In this document: piece after piece, positions 1 through 11,741 of the stretch
How positions within the stretch are numbered: position 1 is the first letter of the stretch
How the letters are laid out: each line of letters opens with the position of its first letter
Assembly (NCBI GenBank): GCA_965220895.1
Contig: OZ244850.1
Span: forward strand, 1,897,506 to 1,961,505
Direction of reading: 5' to 3'
Length of the DNA stretch: 64,000 nt
Source: Gammaproteobacteria bacterium
Lineage (GTDB): Bacteria > Pseudomonadota > Gammaproteobacteria > UBA4575
Program-made: the position numbers and the translations under genes
Notes under the pieces: generated by a model
What the model was told of the DNA's origin: nothing
Seen by the model: the letters and a program-made list of their open reading frames with translations, nothing else
The model's database searches: none

Positions 1-81
1 TGTCAGCAAAAACTCATTCCAGTCGGAGATTTTTCCCGTGGCAAACCTGAGTCTCTACCAAACGAGCCAGACTTATTCAGT

Positions 82-849
82 ATGAGGGTACCAGTCTCCT
101 CGCCGGAACATGCTGCACAGTATATTGCTGGTGTTTATCAGGGTTTTTCTGAGATTCGTTGCAAAGCTAATGACCTCCCCCCAGGAACATCAAGCATCTC
201 AGCTGCGGCAGCGTGGATACTAGGGCGCCCAGAACTGGAGCCCGGTTTGTCGTTGTACTTTTCCCGGCTTGCCACCTCAAACCCATGGCTTCGTGAACGG
301 TTGCAGTCTTCGGCAACATCTCAAGAAGAAAACCGTCAGCAGACTATGATTAAACTTTTGTCTTATATGGTTGGCCATGTAATTCAAAATCTTGTGCTTG
401 CATTTCCGGGTCCTTTGATAAATGTGTCGGTACTGGCTGCGTATTTGGCAGTTTCTGAAACGGATGCGAGGGAATTTGCGGGAGAAGCTGAGCTTGCTGC
501 ATATACAGGCCCATTCTGCGCTTTAGGGCCCTATTATTGGCGAAGCGATGTTGATGCCATCGTCGATAGGGCTATCGAGTTGATGAATGGAGATTTACCC
601 GACGAAGAAAGCGAGCTGAATCGATTCGTGGTGGAAAGAGTAATCAATCATCCACTTGGTGCTCACAACTGTGATAGGGATGGCTGCAATGGTATGCGGG
701 GTGGATTCTGGTGTCCGTTTTCGAAGCGGCCAGTTTGTTCGCTAAATGAGTGTTCCGAAGCATCTACAGCTTGGATTCCTGATGGTGCTGACCTTTGCAG
801 AGTCGAGAAAGATTTTTTTGATGAATTTGCACCACTGTTAGGTCTTTGA
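82..849 (+). CDS. hypothetical protein with Cys-rich C-terminal cluster (CDRDGC..WCPFSKRPVC..NEC). The frame has no stop back to position 1, so the gene may be 5'-truncated by the window edge
   Basis: 255-aa ORF in visibly AT-rich DNA, where long chance ORFs are rare. No family recognised. Stop lies 15 nt before the next co-directional ORF. Confidence 0.5.
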   Translation: MRVPVSSPEHAAQYIAGVYQGFSEIRCKANDLPPGTSSISAAAAWILGRPELEPGLSLYFSRLATSNPWLRERLQSSATSQEENRQQTMIKLLSYMVGHVIQNLVLAFPGPLINVSVLAAYLAVSETDAREFAGEAELAAYTGPFCALGPYYWRSDVDAIVDRAIELMNGDLPDEESELNRFVVERVINHPLGAHNCDRDGCNGMRGGFWCPFSKRPVCSLNECSEASTAWIPDGADLCRVEKDFFDEFAPLLGL

Positions 850-864
850 GTGGCGATCTGCACC

Positions 865-1584
865 ATGGCTAAAAGATCGATAGCTCAAGTGGCAAAACAA
901 CAGCTGGTTGACCTATGGAAGGATTTTCGAGTCAATTTGCGACAAATCAATCGAGAAGTAAGACTGCCCGATTCAAACGTGATTGCCATCCTGGATAAGG
1001 CAGATGATTATGCAACTTTTGATTTAGGCCCCATAGTTCTTTATTTACCTGAAAAGGCTTCTTCAAGGAAAAACTCAAAGGTTTACGCTGTGATTGGTGG
1101 TCAGCTAAAGCTCGGACGTGACGCAGGCTGCAATGACAGCCTGCGAACACAAAGCTATGCTACAAAAATTGGATATTTTCGAGAACGGGAAGGCTGCCTC
1201 AAACATATTTTTGGGGCACACTACGATCATGATTTGACTATTGCCCATCCAGTGTTTCATGCTCAAATTTCAACGCAAGCTGAATTGGCAGAAGTAGTCT
1301 TCAATAAGTTCAGTTTTATTAATAGTCTATGCGAGGATGGGGATAAAGTAGTAGGAATGCTTGGCAATGTACGCGTACCAACATCTCAGATGGATTTCTT
1401 TGCTGTTCTGCTTCAAGTTTTTTCTGATCATCTAGTTAACGAAAGTTCTCCAGCACTCGCAAAGGAGTTTTATAAGAAGCTATATGAAAATTGTCGTTCC
1501 TTTTCTTCTTACTGTGATCATGCTGGTTTAACGGAATCCATAGAAAATAATTGTTTTCGGGCACCCTACTGGTATGAACATTAA
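865..1584 (+). CDS. hypothetical protein (240 aa; alternative GTG start at 850)
   Basis: ORF track 850..1584. ATG at 865 gives MAKRSIAQ.... Same low-GC block, apparently co-transcribed with the upstream ORF. No recognisable domain; contains an HYDHD..HPVFH His-rich stretch. Confidence 0.5.
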   Translation: MAKRSIAQVAKQQLVDLWKDFRVNLRQINREVRLPDSNVIAILDKADDYATFDLGPIVLYLPEKASSRKNSKVYAVIGGQLKLGRDAGCNDSLRTQSYATKIGYFREREGCLKHIFGAHYDHDLTIAHPVFHAQISTQAELAEVVFNKFSFINSLCEDGDKVVGMLGNVRVPTSQMDFFAVLLQVFSDHLVNESSPALAKEFYKKLYENCRSFSSYCDHAGLTESIENNCFRAPYWYEH

Positions 1585-1885
1585 CTCTCGTGTTTTAAGA
1601 TACAGCTAATTAAATTTCATTTAATTTTAATGAGTGAACAAAAATCTCTTCTTCTACACGTCTGAACGGAGACTACTTTTGGCACGCAAGCCTTATTGAA
1701 GGGGACAAGCAATTGATCCCTAGGGGAGAAGAAATTTTAGGGAATTAAATACAAGACAGATTTTAATTTATCTCTGTTGCTCTAACTCAGAACATCGTCT
1801 TTAACAGGGAGATTTGGTTTTTAGTTGCCTGCTGTGCCGCCCGCTTATTTTTGGCACAGACAGGTCGAATCGGTGTACCCAAGCA

Positions 1886-2980
1886 ATGAATCTCGAACAC
1901 ACACTGAAAATAGTGATCAGCCGTCTTATTTCCAATGACTTGGAAAATGAAGCACAAGTTAAGCAGTCTGTTATTCTGCCGGTCCTGCGCGAATTGGGGT
2001 GGGACGATACAGACCCCAAGATGTTTAAGCCGGAGTATTCAGTAGATCGTGGCCTGGTGGATTACGCGTTATTGAGTCATGGCAAGCCACAGGTCTTTAT
2101 TGAAGCTAAGCGAATTGGCGCCCTGGATTCTGGCGGCGAGGAGCAATTGTTTGGATATGCATCTAACAGGGGTGTTCCATTGCTTGTCCTGACGGACGGT
2201 GACCGTTGGGATTTTTATCTCAGCATGGCACCTGGAGTCCTGTCAGAGCAGCGGTTCTACCGGTTGGAGCTGCAGCTGGAACACAAAGTTCGAGAGTATG
2301 CAGAATTCCTGGCCGAGCATCTTCAGAAGGATCATGTTGTTTCTGGAGAAGCAAGACGCAATGCGGAGAAGCGTCTTGCCAGCAACCTAGAGCGAACCAG
2401 AGCTCGCGAAGCTATCCCGGAAGCCTGGCGGTCTTTGTTAAAGGAACCCGATGAGATACTTCGGGACTTGCTTGCTGAAAAGGTGGAGCGAGAATGCGGC
2501 ACCAAGCCAGAGCTCGATGATGTTGAATTATTTTTACGGAAACTCTTAATTTCGCCATCACAATCAAAGCCCACTACCCAAAAACCACCACGCTCTCCCA
2601 GGCTGAATCCATCACGCCCAAAATCATCGCAGTCTAAAGGGAATAAGCTTGTTGGGTTTCTGTTTAAAGGAGAGAAAGTTGAGCCCGGAACTGCCAGAGG
2701 AACTTTGGTAGAGATATTAGAAATTTTTGGACACCAAGATCCGGAGTTTATGCGGCGTTTTGCTGCACAAACGGCCAGCAAAAATCGGAATTTGGTGGCG
2801 AAGAATCGCTCGGACTTGTATAAAAAATCCCACTTAATTGACAAACATTCCAAAAAATTGAGAAACGGCTGGTGGTTGGGGACTAACCTCAGCACAACAC
2901 AAATCCAAAAGCATATCCAAACTGCATGTGGTATAGCGAGGGTAAGGGTTTCTTCCCAATTAAAACTGATCTGGCGCTAA
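1886..2980 (+). CDS. PD-(D/E)xK nuclease-fold protein: N-terminal type I restriction enzyme R-subunit N-terminal-like (HsdR_N) domain, Pro/Ser/Lys-rich linker, uncharacterised C-terminal domain
   Basis: ATG at 1886 (MNLEHTLKIV...) inside track ORF 1814..2980. Residues ~15-130 match the HsdR_N pattern (QVKQSVILPVLRELGW...GLVDYALL...KPQVFIEAKRIG...EQLFGYA...LLVLTDGDRWDFY). The C-terminal ~200 aa are unrecognised. Confidence 0.65.
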   Translation: MNLEHTLKIVISRLISNDLENEAQVKQSVILPVLRELGWDDTDPKMFKPEYSVDRGLVDYALLSHGKPQVFIEAKRIGALDSGGEEQLFGYASNRGVPLLVLTDGDRWDFYLSMAPGVLSEQRFYRLELQLEHKVREYAEFLAEHLQKDHVVSGEARRNAEKRLASNLERTRAREAIPEAWRSLLKEPDEILRDLLAEKVERECGTKPELDDVELFLRKLLISPSQSKPTTQKPPRSPRLNPSRPKSSQSKGNKLVGFLFKGEKVEPGTARGTLVEILEIFGHQDPEFMRRFAAQTASKNRNLVAKNRSDLYKKSHLIDKHSKKLRNGWWLGTNLSTTQIQKHIQTACGIARVRVSSQLKLIWR

Positions 2981-3132
2981 CCTTCAGGATCGGTAGAGAT
3001 GCCTATTCAAAAATCTTCAATATGAAGCATGTAGAGTGTTTGTTCAGGTCATGACCTGGTTCAGCCATTTCACCAGATCTTCTGCACGTAGGTGCGTATA
3101 GAGCAAAATAAATTTTTGAGGATGCTGTAGAT

Positions 3133-3319
3133 TTGGTCCAAGGTTGACTGTACCAGTTTTGTACACCTTCCAAATTCTTACAAGGTGTAAGTGATTGATT
3201 ATTCAACTTCAGTATTGGGCGGGCAAGTGCCTCAAGCAACTGATTAATAAAGATAATTTATGGTTACATACTGCCTACGAACCAGGCGGTCGGGAGTTCG
3301 AATCTCTCCGGGCGCGCCA
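3133..3319 (+). repeat. Direct repeat copy 1 (~189 bp). The last ~50 nt are the 3' half of a tRNA-Arg (anticodon-loop region through CCA, loop reads CTACGAA, i.e. ACG). attR-like junction of an integrated element
   Basis: Near-identical copy at 4347..4532. The 3' segment ctacgaaccaggcggtcgggagttcgaatctctccgggcgcgcca differs at only 2 positions from the intact tRNA at 10109..10185. Contains a small hairpin, cttaca-agg-tgtaag. Confidence 0.8.
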
Positions 3320-3536
3320 CTGATTCCTTTTTGCATCAAGCGGTTACTGCACTATGCGGTCGCCGCTTGCTGTCTCAGTAACACCAGTGCGGGACTTTTG
3401 CGGGAGTTTTCTCCGCACACCCGGTTGGTGGCCTCGATCAGGTTCTCCAACTCGGCCCCCGAGTACGCTTTATATGGAGCTCCACATTGGATATAAATCC
3501 CTTTCGTTACGTGAGCCTTGAAAAGCTGTCATTTGG

Positions 3537-3851
3537 CTATGCAGCACTCACATGCAAATGAACACCTTCATGTTCCCGCACAGCTGCCAGCACTTGCGAA
3601 ATATTATCCAAGCTAGGGTTGCCTTTGTCGCTGAGCATTCGCATCAGGCTAGTGGGTTTTTTGTCCACAATTTCAGCCAAGCCCTGAAAGCCGATAGTTG
3701 CATTCACATAATCGCGCAGCATCGTTTTGGCCACATCAGGTTCGTTATTCAGCAAACACTCAGCAGCTTCAGTAAGCAGGCCCACACGGAATTCAGGATC
3801 AGCCTGCGCCCGCTCCAAAATGGTGGTTCTAAAATCGCGTGTTAATACCAT
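3537..3851 (-). CDS. HTH antitoxin (addiction module antidote protein, HigA family)
   Basis: Internal start MVLTRDFRTTILERAQADPEFRVGLLTEAAE...NATIGFQGLAE...MLSDKGNPSLDNISQVLAAV lies 5 nt after the toxin stop. The track ORF 3537..3911 overextends. Confidence 0.8.
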   Translation of the reverse strand: MVLTRDFRTTILERAQADPEFRVGLLTEAAECLLNNEPDVAKTMLRDYVNATIGFQGLAEIVDKKPTSLMRMLSDKGNPSLDNISQVLAAVREHEGVHLHVSAA

Positions 3852-3855
3852 ATTA

Positions 3856-4182
3856 CTACCTTTGTTTTTTGCGCCGCTTGTAGCCTTTCCACAAGGCTTG
3901 CGCGAATTCAATATCGCGGTTTTGCCGCTTTTTGGTACCGCCGCCCAGCAAGATCACCAGTTCCTCACCATCGTGTCCGAAGTAAATCCGGTAGCCTGGG
4001 CCGAAATCCAGTTTATATTCGCTGACACCTTGCCCAACCCCTCTGACGTTGGAGAAATTGCCTGACTCCATGCGCGCAATGGCTGTGCGTACCTTCAATG
4101 CCGCTTGAACATTAAGCGAAGCAAACCATTTTGAGTAAGGATAGTTACCAGTTTCATCCTCATATTCAACAATGTTAATCAT
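3856..4182 (-). CDS. RelE/ParE-superfamily toxin (addiction module killer protein family, HigB-like)
   Basis: 108 aa; ...YSKWFASL...GNFSNVRGVGQGVSEYKLDFGPGYRIYFGHDGEELVILLGGGTKKRQNRDIEFAQ... is the hallmark of this toxin family. Sits immediately upstream of its HTH antitoxin on the same strand. Confidence 0.85.
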   Translation of the reverse strand: MINIVEYEDETGNYPYSKWFASLNVQAALKVRTAIARMESGNFSNVRGVGQGVSEYKLDFGPGYRIYFGHDGEELVILLGGGTKKRQNRDIEFAQALWKGYKRRKKQR

Positions 4183-4346
4183 AATCCTTTACTAACATTT
4201 ATGCTATCATTGAAATCTGGAAAAATCCACCTTGAGAGCACCTTGGAATCAATCATTTCACCGCCGGCTCCTGATGCTAAGCGGCAAGCTCAGCAGGTAG
4301 CCGATGAATGAAGATAATCGATTTTTGCATCAGGTGCAGGTGGTCG

Positions 4347-4532
4347 TTGATCCAAGGTTGACTGTACCAGTTTTGTACACCTCGCAAATTCTTACAAGGT
4401 GTAAGTGATTGATTATCGAACTTCAGTATTGAGCGGGAAAGTGCTTCAAGTAACTGATTAATAATGATAATTTATGGTTGCATACTGCCTACGAACCAGG
4501 CGGTCGGGAGTTCGAATCTCTCCGGGCCGCCA
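4347..4532 (+). repeat. Direct repeat copy 2 (~188 bp, ~94% identical to copy 1) ending in a tRNA-Arg 3'-half fragment, followed by a T8 run
   Basis: Direct comparison with 3133..3319 gives ~11 mismatches. The tRNA-like end gggccgcca has a 1-nt difference from copy 1. Confidence 0.8.
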
Positions 4533-4619
4533 TTTTTTTTGACCTGTCATCACAGCGAGTGGGTGACTATCCTGCAGTAGGCGGATTGTCCAATTGATTC
4601 CAGCTTTCCTTTTGTTGCG

Positions 4620-6656
4620 ATGAGCCATTGCCTGCGGGGTGATTCGCGATGGTTGGTGGGATTATTGCTGCTGGCGGTTTTCCCAGCGACTCTATCTGCC
4701 ACCAATCCCATTGGGGAGATCGTCGTCACCGGGACCATCGGCGAGCGCCTCGGTAGCGCAGGCAGTGCCAGCCGCATCGATGGGGATGTGCTGGCAGAGA
4801 TCCGGTACAACCACATTCACGAAGCCCTGAGCCGGGTCCCCAGCGTCTGGGTCACCCGGGGGTCTGGCCAGGAGCACCTGACTGCCATCCGCTCGGCGGT
4901 CTTTACTGGACCCGGCGCCTGCGGGAAATTTCTCTATCTTGAGGATGGCTTGCCCATTCGCCCCGCGGGGTTTTGCAACATCAACAACCTCTTCGAGGTC
5001 AATGGCGAGCAGGCAGGGGGCATCGAGGTCTGGCGTGGACCGTCAAGTGCCGTGCTGGGCGGCAATGCAATGCACGGGGTGATCAACGTGCTCACGGCCA
5101 ATCCCGAAGATGCCAGCCTGAGCTTGGAGAGCGGCTCCTACGGTTACAACCAGGCTCGTGCCACATGGGGCGGGCACACTGGCGGGCACTACGTTGGCCT
5201 GAGTGCCCACGGGAGCCAGACCGACGGCTATCGGGACGCCACAGGGTATGACCAGCAGAAGTTCTCCCTGGTCCATGCCACTGATCTTGGCACCTGGCGG
5301 GTGCGCAATACCCTGAGCGCCACCCACCTCAACCAGGAAACCGGCAGCTACGTGCAGGGCTTTGAAGCCTACAAGGACCGTGAACTGCGCCGCTCCAACC
5401 CCAACCCCGAGGCCTATCGGGACGCCTGGTCCTTGCGCGCCGCGAGTCACTGGCAGCGCGGGCCAACCCAAATTTCCGCTTACCTGCGCCGCTCGCACAT
5501 GGAGTTCCTGCAGCACTTCCTGCCCGGACAGCCGACCGAGACCAACGAGCAGACCAGTGCAGGCATGCTGGTCCGCCAAGGGTTTGAAGCCGGGGCCTGG
5601 GCCGGGCAGTTCGGCACGCAAGTCGAGGCCATGCAGGGCAGCCTGCTCGAGATTCAGGATGTACCGGCGACCGGGTCGGCCTTCCTGGTGGCCACTCGCC
5701 CCACAGGGCGACACTACGACTACGACGTCGATTCGTTCATGGCTGCGGGCTTCTACGATCTGAGCCGACCCTTGGGTGGGAAGCTGCGCCTGTTGCACAG
5801 CCTGCGCCTCGAGCACCTGCGCTACGATTATGAAAACCGGCACCTGACGGGCAACAGCCGCGACGACGGCACAGCCTGCGGCTTCGACGGCTGCTTGTAC
5901 ACCCGGCCCGCCTCCAGGGAAGACCGGTTCACCGAAGTAGCCGGGCGCTTAGGGGTCGAGCGCGATTTTGGTGCCCGCCGTTCCGGCTATGTGATGCTCA
6001 GCAGCGGATTTCGACCGCCGCAAGCTACCGAACTCTACCGCCTGCAGCAGGGGCAAACCGTGGCAGACCTGGACAGCGAACGCCTGCTGTCGGTGGAGAC
6101 CGGCTTTCGCAGCGGGGCTTGGTCGGTGTCGGCCTTCGGCCAGTGGAGCCGCGACTTCATTTTCCGTGATGCCAGTGGCTTCAACGTCAGCGACGGCAAA
6201 ACCCGGTCCGCCGGGCTCGAGTTTTCAGGCGACTGGCATCTGGGTGACCATGCCTTGAGCCTCGCCATCGGCTATGCCGTGCACAAGTACGATTTTACCC
6301 GTGATGTCGGACGAGGCGAACGGATCGAAGAAGGCAACCTGATGGATTCGGCACCGCGCTGGCTCACCCATGCCCGCTGGCGCTACCAGCCGGATGAGCG
6401 CTGGTATTCCGAGTTTGAACTGAACCAGGTGGGCGAGCACTACATTAACGCCGCCAACACTGCCAAGTATGAAGGCCACGTCGTGCTCAACTGGCGTGGT
6501 GGTTACAGGCTGAGCGAGCATATCGACCTGTTTGCCCGGGTCATCAATCTGTTCGATGAGCACTATGCCGACCGCGCCGACCATGCCTTCGGTACCTACC
6601 GCTACTTCCCGGCCATGCCGTTGCAGGGCTATGTGGGGATCAATCTGGCACTGTAA
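4620..6656 (+). CDS. TonB-dependent outer-membrane receptor
   Basis: Signal peptide followed by a plug domain (EIVVTGT...VPSVWVTRGSG...GLPIRPAGFCNINNLFEVN...VWRGPSSAVLGGNAMHGVINV) and a ~600-aa barrel. Confidence 0.85.
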   Translation: MSHCLRGDSRWLVGLLLLAVFPATLSATNPIGEIVVTGTIGERLGSAGSASRIDGDVLAEIRYNHIHEALSRVPSVWVTRGSGQEHLTAIRSAVFTGPGACGKFLYLEDGLPIRPAGFCNINNLFEVNGEQAGGIEVWRGPSSAVLGGNAMHGVINVLTANPEDASLSLESGSYGYNQARATWGGHTGGHYVGLSAHGSQTDGYRDATGYDQQKFSLVHATDLGTWRVRNTLSATHLNQETGSYVQGFEAYKDRELRRSNPNPEAYRDAWSLRAASHWQRGPTQISAYLRRSHMEFLQHFLPGQPTETNEQTSAGMLVRQGFEAGAWAGQFGTQVEAMQGSLLEIQDVPATGSAFLVATRPTGRHYDYDVDSFMAAGFYDLSRPLGGKLRLLHSLRLEHLRYDYENRHLTGNSRDDGTACGFDGCLYTRPASREDRFTEVAGRLGVERDFGARRSGYVMLSSGFRPPQATELYRLQQGQTVADLDSERLLSVETGFRSGAWSVSAFGQWSRDFIFRDASGFNVSDGKTRSAGLEFSGDWHLGDHALSLAIGYAVHKYDFTRDVGRGERIEEGNLMDSAPRWLTHARWRYQPDERWYSEFELNQVGEHYINAANTAKYEGHVVLNWRGGYRLSEHIDLFARVINLFDEHYADRADHAFGTYRYFPAMPLQGYVGINLAL

Positions 6657-10108: not shown

Positions 10109-10185
10109 GCGCCCGTAGCTCAGCTGGATAGAGTACCTGGCTTCGAACCAGGTGGTCGGGAGTTCGAATCTCTCCGGGCGCGCCA
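10109..10185 (+). tRNA. tRNA-Arg (anticodon TCG), intact, 77 nt with encoded CCA
   Basis: Manual fold: acceptor GCGCCCG/CGGGCGC, D-arm GCTC-AGCTGGATA-GAGT, anticodon stem CCTGG/CCAGG with loop CTTCGAA, T-arm GGGAG-TTCGAAT-CTCTC, discriminator G. Confidence 0.85.
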
Positions 10186-10198
10186 TTTTGATTTCGGT

Positions 10199-11491
10199 CC
10201 GTACCGGGGACATGGTATACGTTTTATACCGGAGACATGGTTAACACTTTTTCGGTATAAACGGGTTCTCTGCGGGTTCGACCCGTCCGGCTTCTTCGTC
10301 GAAGAAGCCTAAATCATATTGCATGAAGCTGACAAGCCAGATGCGGTCTTCGACCTCCCGTATGCCCACGACCTGGCCGGCGAAGACGGTGCTGAGGTTG
10401 ATCTTTCGTCGTCCGATACAGATGCGCCCGCACTGGGTGACCTTGAGGGTGCGGTCGTGGAAGGGGTATTGCGGGGGTTGCGGCGGGGCATAGGGGCGTG
10501 TGGAGGGTGTATAGACATCTGCGGGATACAGGCCGCCGAGGGCCTGGTGCGGTCGTTCATGGTTGTATACCCGGATAAAGTCGTCGAAGCGGCTTTGCTG
10601 TTGCAGGGAGTTGAAGGAAGCGGGTCGGGTGGCTTCTTTCTTGAGGGTCAGGTGCATGCGTTCATGGCGCCCGTTCTGCTGGGGCTGTCCGGGCTGGATG
10701 CGTTCGATGCGGATGCCCAGGCGCAGCCACCAGACCGACAGGGAACTGAGGCCGAACAGGGCATTGGGCGAGGCGAAGGGGACGCCGTGATCGGTGCGGA
10801 TGGCCTGGGGCAGCCCATAGGCGTTGAAGGCCTGCTCGAAGACCGTGCGTGCGAAGGGGGATTTTGTCGAGTCCAGGGCCTCACAGGCAAGCAGGTAGCG
10901 GGAGTGATAGTCGGTGAGAGTAAGGGGATAGCAGTAGGCCTGGTTGCCGAGGCGGAACTGGCCCTTGTAGTCGGCACACCACAGGGCGTTGGGGGCTTGT
11001 GCATCGCTTAAAGCGGTGCCTTGGGCACGCCGGCGCCGGCGTTTGCGCCGTTTCACCAGGCCGTGACGGTCCAGCACCGCGTGGATCGTGCTCTTGGCCG
11101 GAGGATGGACCAGGGCATAGGCCCGCATCAGCTTCTCGCGGATCTTCGGCGCCCCCCAGCTCGGATGGTCACGCTTGATGCGCAGGATCGTTCGCTCCAC
11201 CGGGTACGGCAGGCGGTTGGCATGACGATAGGGCCTGCGGCTGCGATCGTCCAGCCCCTGCAGACCGCAGTCGCGATAGCGATTGAAGATCTTGTATCCG
11301 GTCACCCGGGAGATGCCGAACTCCCGGCACACCACCGCCATCTTCTCGCCCTCCAGCAACCGGGCTATAAATCGTATACGTTCATCCATCGGCTTACACT
11401 CTCTCCAAGGCATTCCAAGGTCTCCCTCAAATGCTCTATTGTGTAAACCATGTCTCCGGTATTTGCTGTAAGCTATGTCTCGGGTACTACA
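10199..11491 (-). mobile_element. IS481-family insertion sequence (~1.29 kb) inserted 8 nt downstream of tRNA-Arg, apparently flanked by a 6-bp TTCGGT duplication (10193..10198 and 11492..11497)
   Basis: Outer imperfect IRs: GTACCGGGGACATGGTATAC at 10201 and GTAAGCTATGTCTCGGGTAC at 11468 on the opposite strand. A better-matched inner IR pair, CCGGAGACATGGTT(A/T)ACAC, sits at 10229..10247 and 11441..11459. Single DDE transposase ORF inside. Confidence 0.75.
10241..11389 (-). CDS. IS481-family DDE transposase (integrase catalytic core)
   Basis: N-terminus MDERIRFIARLLEGEKMAVVCREFGISRVTGYKIFNRYRDCGLQGL, an rve-type core (...WCADYKG...TDHGVPF...) and C-terminal ...YNHERPHQALGG.... The track ORF start at 11503 overextends past the IR. 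Confidence 0.85.
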   Translation of the reverse strand: MDERIRFIARLLEGEKMAVVCREFGISRVTGYKIFNRYRDCGLQGLDDRSRRPYRHANRLPYPVERTILRIKRDHPSWGAPKIREKLMRAYALVHPPAKSTIHAVLDRHGLVKRRKRRRRRAQGTALSDAQAPNALWCADYKGQFRLGNQAYCYPLTLTDYHSRYLLACEALDSTKSPFARTVFEQAFNAYGLPQAIRTDHGVPFASPNALFGLSSLSVWWLRLGIRIERIQPGQPQQNGRHERMHLTLKKEATRPASFNSLQQQSRFDDFIRVYNHERPHQALGGLYPADVYTPSTRPYAPPQPPQYPFHDRTLKVTQCGRICIGRRKINLSTVFAGQVVGIREVEDRIWLVSFMQYDLGFFDEEAGRVEPAENPFIPKKC

Positions 11492-11741
11492 TTCGGTTGT
11501 CATCTTTTGCAGGGCAGCAGAATACGCTTGTCTTGTATGAAGTCTGGAACCCCCACTTCAGGGCTGCATGTCGCAGCCCTTGTTATTGTTTAGACCATAT
11601 CTTTAGAAGTTACTGATCCCAAGGGGCGCATTTGCCTTTGAATTAATATTCATATTAATAATAATTACTATTAACACTATGATTCGTTTTCATAAAAATG
11701 TAATATGCGCACCAGAATGTGACAGTTTCTTGGAGATACCG

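Follow-up and report, generated by a model that had tools for sequence, protein, structure and literature searches.

What kind of system is encoded by the three co-directional genes (here A, B and C) that open a 64,000-nucleotide (nt) stretch of a gammaproteobacterial genome, and do the three belong together? The stretch, referred to in its full length as the window, derives from the lineage UBA4575 (GenBank assembly GCA_965220895.1, contig OZ244850.1, positions 1,897,506 to 1,961,505 of the forward strand), and the genes lie in DNA of foreign base composition, just inside a repeat built on the 3' half of a transfer RNA (tRNA) gene. An earlier interpretation of the same letters (the sequence-only reading) had taken A, B and C for one candidate defence or conflict operon that fits no system that could be named. 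Comparison with relatives leads to a different answer, namely that positions 1-1584 are quite probably the distal half of a mobile four-gene operon of the order methylase-X-A-B, whose first half lies to the left of the window, and that C is separate from it. It is somewhat more likely than not that this four-gene cassette is a defence or exclusion system. The features on which the argument depends, with protein lengths in amino acids (aa), are as follows.

1..849, + strand: gene A, the 3' 283 codons of a 366-aa protein, with the frame open from base 1 and the remainder supplied by contigs L044 and L001
664..753, + strand: Cys-rich motif of A, HxCxRxxCxGxxGGFWCPFxxRxVCxxxxC, A residues about 305-334
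850..1584, + strand: gene B, the open reading frame (ORF) of the fourth cassette gene, 244 aa from GTG 850 or 239 aa from ATG 865
1585..1885, no strand: AT-rich spacer between B and C, 301 nt, 39% guanine plus cytosine (GC) as measured in the window
1886..2980, + strand: gene C, 364 aa, with an ATG at 1886 that lines up with the starts of its homologs

A truncated operon at the edge of the window

Frame 1 of gene A is open from the first base of the window, and two metagenome contigs that carry the same element and reach further left complete the gene. The metagenome contig L044, which has ~20 differences from the window in 2235 nt (~99% identical) and extends 576 nt further left, and contig L001 both place the true start of A 249 nt to the left of the window, giving a full protein of 365-366 aa; in both, the start of A and the stop codon of X, a large gene upstream, overlap. 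L044 yields the full 366-aa A together with the last 107 aa of X, which contain its C-terminal HATPase_c domain. The open frame and these two extensions therefore identify the left edge of the window as the interior of a truncated A that is preceded by the tail of X, and the start at position 82 in the sequence-only reading (82..849) has to be given up. Truncation likewise accounts for the exact look-up of the window's 255-aa A ORF, which returned no match. Other parts of that reading stand as they were made, including the ORFs of B (850/865-1584, where ATG 865 lines up with the starts of homologs) and C (1886-2980), the 15-nt gap between A and B, the AT-rich spacer of about 300 nt before C, and the observation that neither A nor B belongs to a curated family: A has none in Pfam, NCBIfam, PADLOC or PHROG, and B none in any library searched (Pfam, PADLOC and PHROG among them).

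Conservation of the cassette across genomes

The surroundings of A were surveyed in 29 loci from species-representative genomes, found with a profile of A, and in three additional loci (L005-L007), with all ORFs scored by phmmer against the methylase, X, A, B and C. The arrangement methylase-X-A-B, with genes that overlap or are separated by gaps of <20 nt, was present in about 25 of the surveyed loci, from hosts as different as Alpha-, Beta- and Gammaproteobacteria, Acidobacteriota (Terriglobia and Thermoanaerobaculia) and Actinomycetota, and the same order was seen in the gene tables around three A homologs on large contigs. The other surveyed loci are truncated by the end of a contig or show visible decay (frameshifts in L020, L021 and L033, and an insertion in L026). 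A word-indexed search found at least 155 homologs of A and 11 of B, the closest of which lie on shared contigs. The downstream gene of Bradyrhizobium, called at 146 aa from a misplaced start, is in fact a homolog of B. A plasmid copy from Paraburkholderia (L041), annotated as methyltransferase, sensor histidine kinase and two hypothetical proteins, adjoins a tyrosine integrase. Upstream of the methylase, no conserved ORF, XRE gene or C-protein gene was found in 28 loci, and a helix-turn-helix (HTH) gene occurred only in L041.

Domain architecture of the cassette proteins

The window's own lineage displays only the C-terminal part of X, and the methylase and most of X are read from relatives. 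The methylase of the cassette is an Eco57I-type N6-adenine DNA methyltransferase of ~460 aa. In two Bradyrhizobium loci (L007, 5880-7640; L011, 5841-7619), this position is taken by an N6_N4_Mtase domain fused to Mrr_cat/NA-iREase1 ('NACHT-associated inactive REase'). X is a soluble protein of ~750 aa with two ATPase domains, which in L005, L007 and L032 comprise an N-terminal paraMORC-type GHKL domain (HATPase_c_3, PF13589; expectation value (E) 1e-19 to 1e-23) and a C-terminal kinase domain (HATPase_c, PF02518; E 1e-21 to 1e-22). The X of contig L001 (at least 614 aa) contains HATPase_c (E 1.2e-16) and, in its H-box dimerisation domain, the sequence 'MTHEFG' with the tripeptide H-E-F. The GHKL head (residues ~24-188) matches the BbrUII/HgiDII family NF050001 at E 2e-17, with 63 bits versus a cut-off of 550, and also matches the REase_II (type II REase) models of PADLOC. 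A Pfam-type domain search of the cassette X proteins found no nuclease domain in them.

Gene A encodes a receiver-domain protein. Its AlphaFold2 model, built from 36 homologs (predicted local distance difference test (pLDDT) 87, predicted template modelling score (pTM) 0.87), has a REC fold with an acidic pair after strand beta1 and a phospho-acceptor Asp after beta3, and homologs of A all keep the two acidic residues, D12 and D13, as well as the Asp at the phospho-acceptor site (D65, within 'ITDYDL'). The phospho-acceptor pocket, like the H-box of X, is apparently functional. Alignment with hhalign to the annotated response regulator of a Campylobacter plasmid cassette gave E 2.5e-4 and covered REC beta1-beta4 only. 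Strands beta1-beta3 are cut off by the edge of the window, which retains the end of REC, the helical domain and the Cys-rich C-terminal part. The other ~250 residues of the protein are helical and then form this Cys-rich module, for which no solved structure matches. H305, C307, C312, C321, C329 and C334 are invariant across the 36 homologs, and the motif, which belongs to the output domain of A, probably binds metal. A kringle-like reading of the motif (from its resemblance to CRNPxGxxGGPWC...) was rejected, the best match in the PDB being the HGF kringle at a non-significant E of 0.12; nor did sequence profiles of A, B or C have any significant match among PDB chains.

An exhaustive HMMER search of 1.84 billion representatives placed the homologs of B in 401 clusters, nearly all of them single-domain proteins of ~240 aa. 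Among 127 diverse members, with a median identity of 29% to the window protein, residues H124, D126, H133, P134, H137, Q139, R175, D182, D193 and H194 are conserved at 96-100%, and this His/Asp/Arg/Gln set looks like an active site. The AlphaFold2 model is of moderate quality (pLDDT 77) and depicts a long antiparallel sheet packed by helices; the predicted fold matched no nuclease. B is thus predicted to be an enzyme of unassigned fold and, by analogy, probably a metal-dependent hydrolase acting on nucleic acid. Given the invariant His/Asp set and the positional equivalence of the fourth slot, B may be the catalytic effector of the cassette, with the chances for and against this role about level, and that it is specifically a nuclease is possible but doubtful. 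A natural fusion of A and B (P0321, 596 aa) was considered as a sign of physical coupling and set aside, as its Cys-rich A region is scrambled and it is probably a frameshift or assembly artefact; a second apparent fusion (P0301, 376 aa) is likewise partial. Taken together, the output domain of A and the whole of B constitute two unannotated protein families.

Comparison with described systems

The general architecture was described in a 2021 survey (Bellieny-Rabelo et al., PMC8011034), in which proteins containing HATPase_c_3, HEF_HK and HATPase_c are paired with Response_reg_2 proteins beside methylases, mostly C5-cytosine, with Vsr or HNH_2 partners in the fourth slot. Prokaryotic paraMORCs are cited there as occurring in restriction-modification (R-M) contexts (Iyer et al. 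2008, as cited in PMC8011034). The likeness to these elements includes the soluble X with its HATPase_c_3, H-box (H-E-F) and HATPase_c, the adjacency of kinase-like and REC-like genes, the methyltransferase directly upstream, and an A protein without other known domains. However, the best match of HEF_HK (PF19191) to X, seen only in L007 at residues 515-564 where it would be expected, scores 12.0 bits (E 0.31) and stays below the gathering score of 24.1, while Response_reg_2 (PF19192) had no match at E up to 10 for the A proteins of L001, L005 and L032. The methylase is of the Eco57I-type N6-adenine class as opposed to the predominant C5-cytosine enzymes, and the partner is B in place of Vsr or HNH_2. 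With PF19191 below threshold, PF19192 unmatched, another methylase type and another partner, the cassette groups by sequence as a sister clade of the HEF_HK/Response_reg_2 elements and not, by the published profiles, as a member.

Two further plasmid cassettes resemble this arrangement. In Hymenobacter volaticus (L042, 3658-8792), an N6 methylase is followed by a GHKL-plus-kinase protein, a 227-aa protein and an MBL-fold hydrolase, and in Campylobacter armoricus (L043, 4974-9424), the genes for a GHKL-plus-kinase protein and a 340-aa response regulator have a C5 methylase gene as their neighbour on the other strand. The kinases and regulators of both had no match to PF19191 or PF19192, indicating that the superfamily is wider than the published profiles.

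The closest functional reference is Ambrosia (AbrR-AbrA-AbrB-AbrC-AbrD), a five-gene system that protects P. aeruginosa from phages, in which every gene and the REC Asp are required and AbrC is proposed to induce the operon (bioRxiv 10.1101/2025.09.30.679545). The cassette shares with it, in the same order, an N6-adenine methyltransferase, a histidine kinase/HSP90-like ATPase, a REC protein and a fourth gene, as well as the gating of R-M-like parts by a two-component pair, with the essential REC Asp (D60) of Ambrosia corresponding to the invariant D65 of A. The differences, which are drawn from the published description of Ambrosia and not from Abr protein sequences, are also considerable. Ambrosia has a HipB-like XRE gene (AbrR) at its head, whereas the cassette has no conserved XRE gene (only the HTH gene of L041); its REC protein has a winged helix-turn-helix output, while the output of A is helical and Cys-rich and apparently of another kind; and it is found mainly in Pseudomonadales, whereas the cassette is spread over the five host groups listed above. 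The fourth slot is occupied by a type IV HNH endonuclease in Ambrosia, by an MBL-fold hydrolase in the Hymenobacter plasmid and by B, which has no HNH match, in the cassette.

Other systems are less similar. X shares the N-terminal GHKL domain and the linkage to a methyltransferase with the BbrUII/HgiDII restriction enzymes, but only the ATPase head is matched, and the rest of X is a histidine-kinase module signalling to a separate REC protein. Membership of MADS (mad1-8) was considered and rejected: that system has eight genes, of which mad6-8 are mandatory, whereas the cassette has four, with only a weak match of its methylase to mad2 (E 1.3e-6) and no mad matches for X, A or B.

Gene C

The N-terminus of C is an HSDR_N domain of the PD-(D/E)xK fold (Pfam PF04313, E 2.1e-10; PHROG 'endonuclease', E 4.8e-19), as had been recognised from the letters of the sequence, and D59, E73 and K75 are invariant across 38 homologs, so that the nuclease domain appears to be intact. 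Behind it follow a helical region, then a linker rich in Pro, Ser and Lys (nt 2552-2644), and finally ~110 aa (nt 2645-2977) that make up a conserved C-terminal domain, which carries '...NGWWLGTNLS...' and has no Pfam or PDB relatives, also in agreement with the earlier description. Homologs number 884, are full length and share 50-70% identity, and C is not represented in PADLOC. C resembles type I HsdR subunits and Mrr-like solitary nucleases in the HSDR_N fold and the D...E-x-K motif, and some of its homologs are named 'type I restriction endonuclease' by NCBI. In contrast to type I R subunits, which have helicase/translocase domains and hsdM/hsdS partners, C has no ResIII/helicase match, and no hsdM, hsdS or other conserved neighbour was found in six genomic contexts; C is therefore not a type I R subunit. 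In those six loci (L002, L004 and L037-L040), its neighbours are transposases, toxin-antitoxin or ordinary genes, and it adjoins the cassette only in the window's lineage (the window, L001 and L044). C is thus a separate, monocistronic and widespread PD-(D/E)xK nuclease that is not part of the cassette, and probably a solitary enzyme acting alone; as no methylase accompanies it consistently, the leading guess is a type IV-like activity that depends on DNA modification.

The spacer at 1585..1885 presumably holds C's own promoter; a scan of positions 1-4700 for promoters and terminators gave chance-level results only. The idea that C is preceded by a conserved leader, riboswitch or small ORF was considered and rejected, as the upstream regions of the six C loci have nothing in common beyond the close relative. 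A divergent PhdYeFM-type antitoxin gene lies ~270-300 nt upstream of C in L037 (5022-5697, together with a PIN toxin gene), L039 (165-425) and L040 (5485-5730), which may reflect a shared toxin-antitoxin or defence hotspot.

Proposed mechanism and alternative explanations

To the gene order, tight spacing and co-inheritance observed in 28 loci, the domains of the methylase and X, the REC fold of A and the invariant residues of B, a sequence of events can be added by analogy with Ambrosia and GHKL-containing restriction enzymes. The methyltransferase would mark DNA, and the MORC/BbrUII-like ATPase head of X would engage DNA or sense an infection cue and thereby switch on the kinase half of X, which would phosphorylate A at D65. 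Phosphorylated A would then, via its output domain, either induce transcription of the operon or directly license B, which would act as the catalytic effector. A more far-reaching version would see here a phosphorelay-gated, methylation-linked immunity distinct from Ambrosia, in which B (~400 clusters at 50% identity, with the site H-x-D...H-P-x-x-H-x-Q...R...D...D-H) founds a new enzyme fold and family, A licenses B directly through a novel output domain (a helical region and a Zn-cluster-like Cys motif, and so not a transcription factor only), and C belongs to a widespread, uncharacterised family of >880 single-protein restriction-type nucleases with a new C-terminal DNA-reader domain; this version is tentative and, as a whole, rather unlikely.

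Several observations weigh against reading positions 1-1584 as half of a defence cassette. Both A and X fall below the published Pfam thresholds (no match to PF19192, and 12 bits versus 24.1 for PF19191), and the methyltransferase and most of X lie outside the window and are taken from relatives, with L044 supplying only the last 107 aa of X. There is no clear enrichment of defence islands around 28 cassettes: among 150 flanking ORFs, the commonest family accounts for at most 3, and the neighbours are a mixed set that includes a few recombinases and scattered defence genes (e.g., DarG and some methylases), so that guilt by association is weak. The methylase of Ambrosia did not protect phage DNA (bioRxiv 10.1101/2025.09.30.679545), so the reference mechanism is itself unsettled. 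Finally, the Bradyrhizobium loci in which the methylase is fused to Mrr_cat retain X, A and B, and since B is kept beside a methylase that already bears an Mrr-type domain, B is not simply 'the nuclease slot'.

The proposal of the sequence-only reading, that A, B and C are one three-gene defence operon with C as the nuclease effector and A and B as its partners, is very improbable. The three genes do run in one direction, side by side, in the window as well as in L001 and in L044, and the catalytic D/E/K residues of C are intact. However, in 28 loci A and B always go together with the upstream methylase and X, while C is absent from all 29 genome loci, L005-L007 and L041, all of which carry A and B, and the solitary C loci described above are without A or B. 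The 301 nt between B and C contrast with cassette genes that overlap or lie <20 nt apart, and L001 resembles the window in a mosaic fashion (with nucleotide identities of 87.5% in A, 93.7% in B, 92.2% in the spacer and 98.1% in C), which suggests separate histories for A, B and C and hints at recombination within the element or at faster divergence of A. A lack of co-occurrence had been named beforehand as evidence against a joint system, and for C this lack is what the loci exhibit. Nor does it still hold that the set fits no system that could be named, given that the architecture was described in 2021 (PMC8011034) and that a version with an HNH nuclease is the anti-phage system Ambrosia (bioRxiv 10.1101/2025.09.30.679545). 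The suggested role in defence or conflict remains plausible; the single, undescribed three-gene system is not supported.

The four-gene operon could also have a function outside immunity, as an epigenetic regulatory or selfish module in which the two-component pair controls an orphan methyltransferase and, through it, gene expression in the host or addiction, with B in an accessory regulatory role. Such a function would suit the lack of a detectable canonical nuclease in most cassette versions, the flanks of mostly ordinary metabolic genes with some recombinases, the non-protective methylation in Ambrosia and the 2021 paper, which proposed a regulatory link to R-M only (PMC8011034). It is nevertheless unlikely in view of the homology of the GHKL head of X to the BbrUII/HgiDII restriction enzymes, the HNH or MBL hydrolases that fill the fourth slot in sister cassettes, the strong anti-phage activity of Ambrosia with each gene needed, and the patchy, mobile and sometimes pseudogenised (L020, L021 and L033) occurrence of the cassette, as is typical of defence genes. 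Alternatively, the four-gene architecture may hold while B is a modulator (a phosphatase or anti-activator of A, or a reader of DNA modification) and DNA is damaged by X or an unlinked host nuclease. The fold of B, which matches no nuclease, its persistence where the methylase has a fused Mrr-type domain, and the resemblance of the X head to GHKL restriction enzymes are consistent with this arrangement, but X has a kinase module where BbrUII-type enzymes keep their remaining domains and no nuclease domain was found in it, the residues of B that are invariant at a median identity of 29% look like an active site, and the genes at the same position in sister systems are hydrolases. A modulator role for B is accordingly also on the improbable side, and a defence or exclusion cassette encoded by methylase, X, A and B is the preferred explanation.

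R-M-like modules wired to a histidine kinase and a receiver have only very recently joined the known forms of bacterial immunity, and how they work is not settled; in Ambrosia, the methylase is not protective (bioRxiv 10.1101/2025.09.30.679545). The cassette is broadly distributed and compact (four genes with no extra regulator), with the HNH nuclease exchanged for a conserved B of unassigned fold, and it is therefore useful for separating the universal parts of such systems (the MORC-like ATPase, the kinase and REC) from exchangeable output and effector modules. Its comparison also bears on whether B holds a new catalytic domain. Neither A nor B is picked up by the annotation and defence-finder profiles now in use, and C is mislabelled by gene callers as a type I restriction enzyme.

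Base composition and the end of the island

The GC content of positions 1-3136 is 45.1%, compared with a mean of 58.3% (standard deviation 1.9, minimum 54.0) in 282 equal-sized windows elsewhere in the window. This deviation is real and far outside chance, which bears out the low GC reported earlier. The block does not, however, end at 3136 as had been stated but extends to ~4600 (45.8% GC over 1-4600) through a second repeat-bounded segment. Its right-hand part and the nearby transposase gene contain the following features.

3133..3319, + strand: direct repeat copy 1, attR-like, ~138 nt of island-end sequence followed by a 49-nt tRNA-Arg 3' half (3271-3319)
3537..4182, - strand: toxin-antitoxin pair, RelE/ParE-family toxin (3856-4182) and HI1420-type antidote (3537-3911)
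4347..4533, + strand: direct repeat copy 2, 94% identical to copy 1, with a tRNA-Arg 3' fragment (4485-4533), at the right-hand limit of the low-GC block
10241..11503, - strand: DDE transposase, 420 aa, HTH and rve-like, within an insertion sequence (IS) element

The att-like repeat proposed in the sequence-only reading is genuine, as positions 3133-3313 recur at 4347-4527 with 94% identity and each copy is closed by 49 nt that correspond to the 3' half of a tRNA-Arg gene, running from the anticodon stem to CCA, and are 94% identical to an intact tRNA-Arg(TCG) gene at 10109-10185. No complete tRNA or transfer-messenger RNA (tmRNA) was found at either repeat with ARAGORN or Rfam. The 181-nt repeat was also considered as a tmRNA or the 3' piece of a permuted tmRNA and rejected, the ARAGORN and Rfam searches being empty and the alignment consisting of the tRNA-Arg 3' half and island-end DNA. 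A tRNA 3' direct repeat at the end and a deviant base composition, the two marks of an island integrated at a tRNA gene, are thus both present, and positions 1-4600 are a low-GC island remnant closed by tandem repeats built on a tRNA-Arg 3' fragment. The left end of the island lies outside the window, and contigs L001 and L044 both stop inside gene X; the intact tRNA-Arg(TCG) gene at 10109 sits downstream and is not in the attL position.

The 1.2-kb segment between the repeats (3320-4533) has the toxin-antitoxin pair as its sole cargo and is for this reason probably the remnant of a second, related island that inserted in tandem at the same tRNA-Arg site. The toxin matches TIGR02683 at E 7e-28, above the curated cut-off, and Pfam Gp49 was also matched at the pair, while the match of the antidote to TIGR02684 is weak. 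Further to the right, an IS element (10201-11503) begins 16 nt downstream of the intact tRNA-Arg(TCG) gene and is bounded by 47-nt imperfect inverted repeats at 10201-10247 and 11441-11487.

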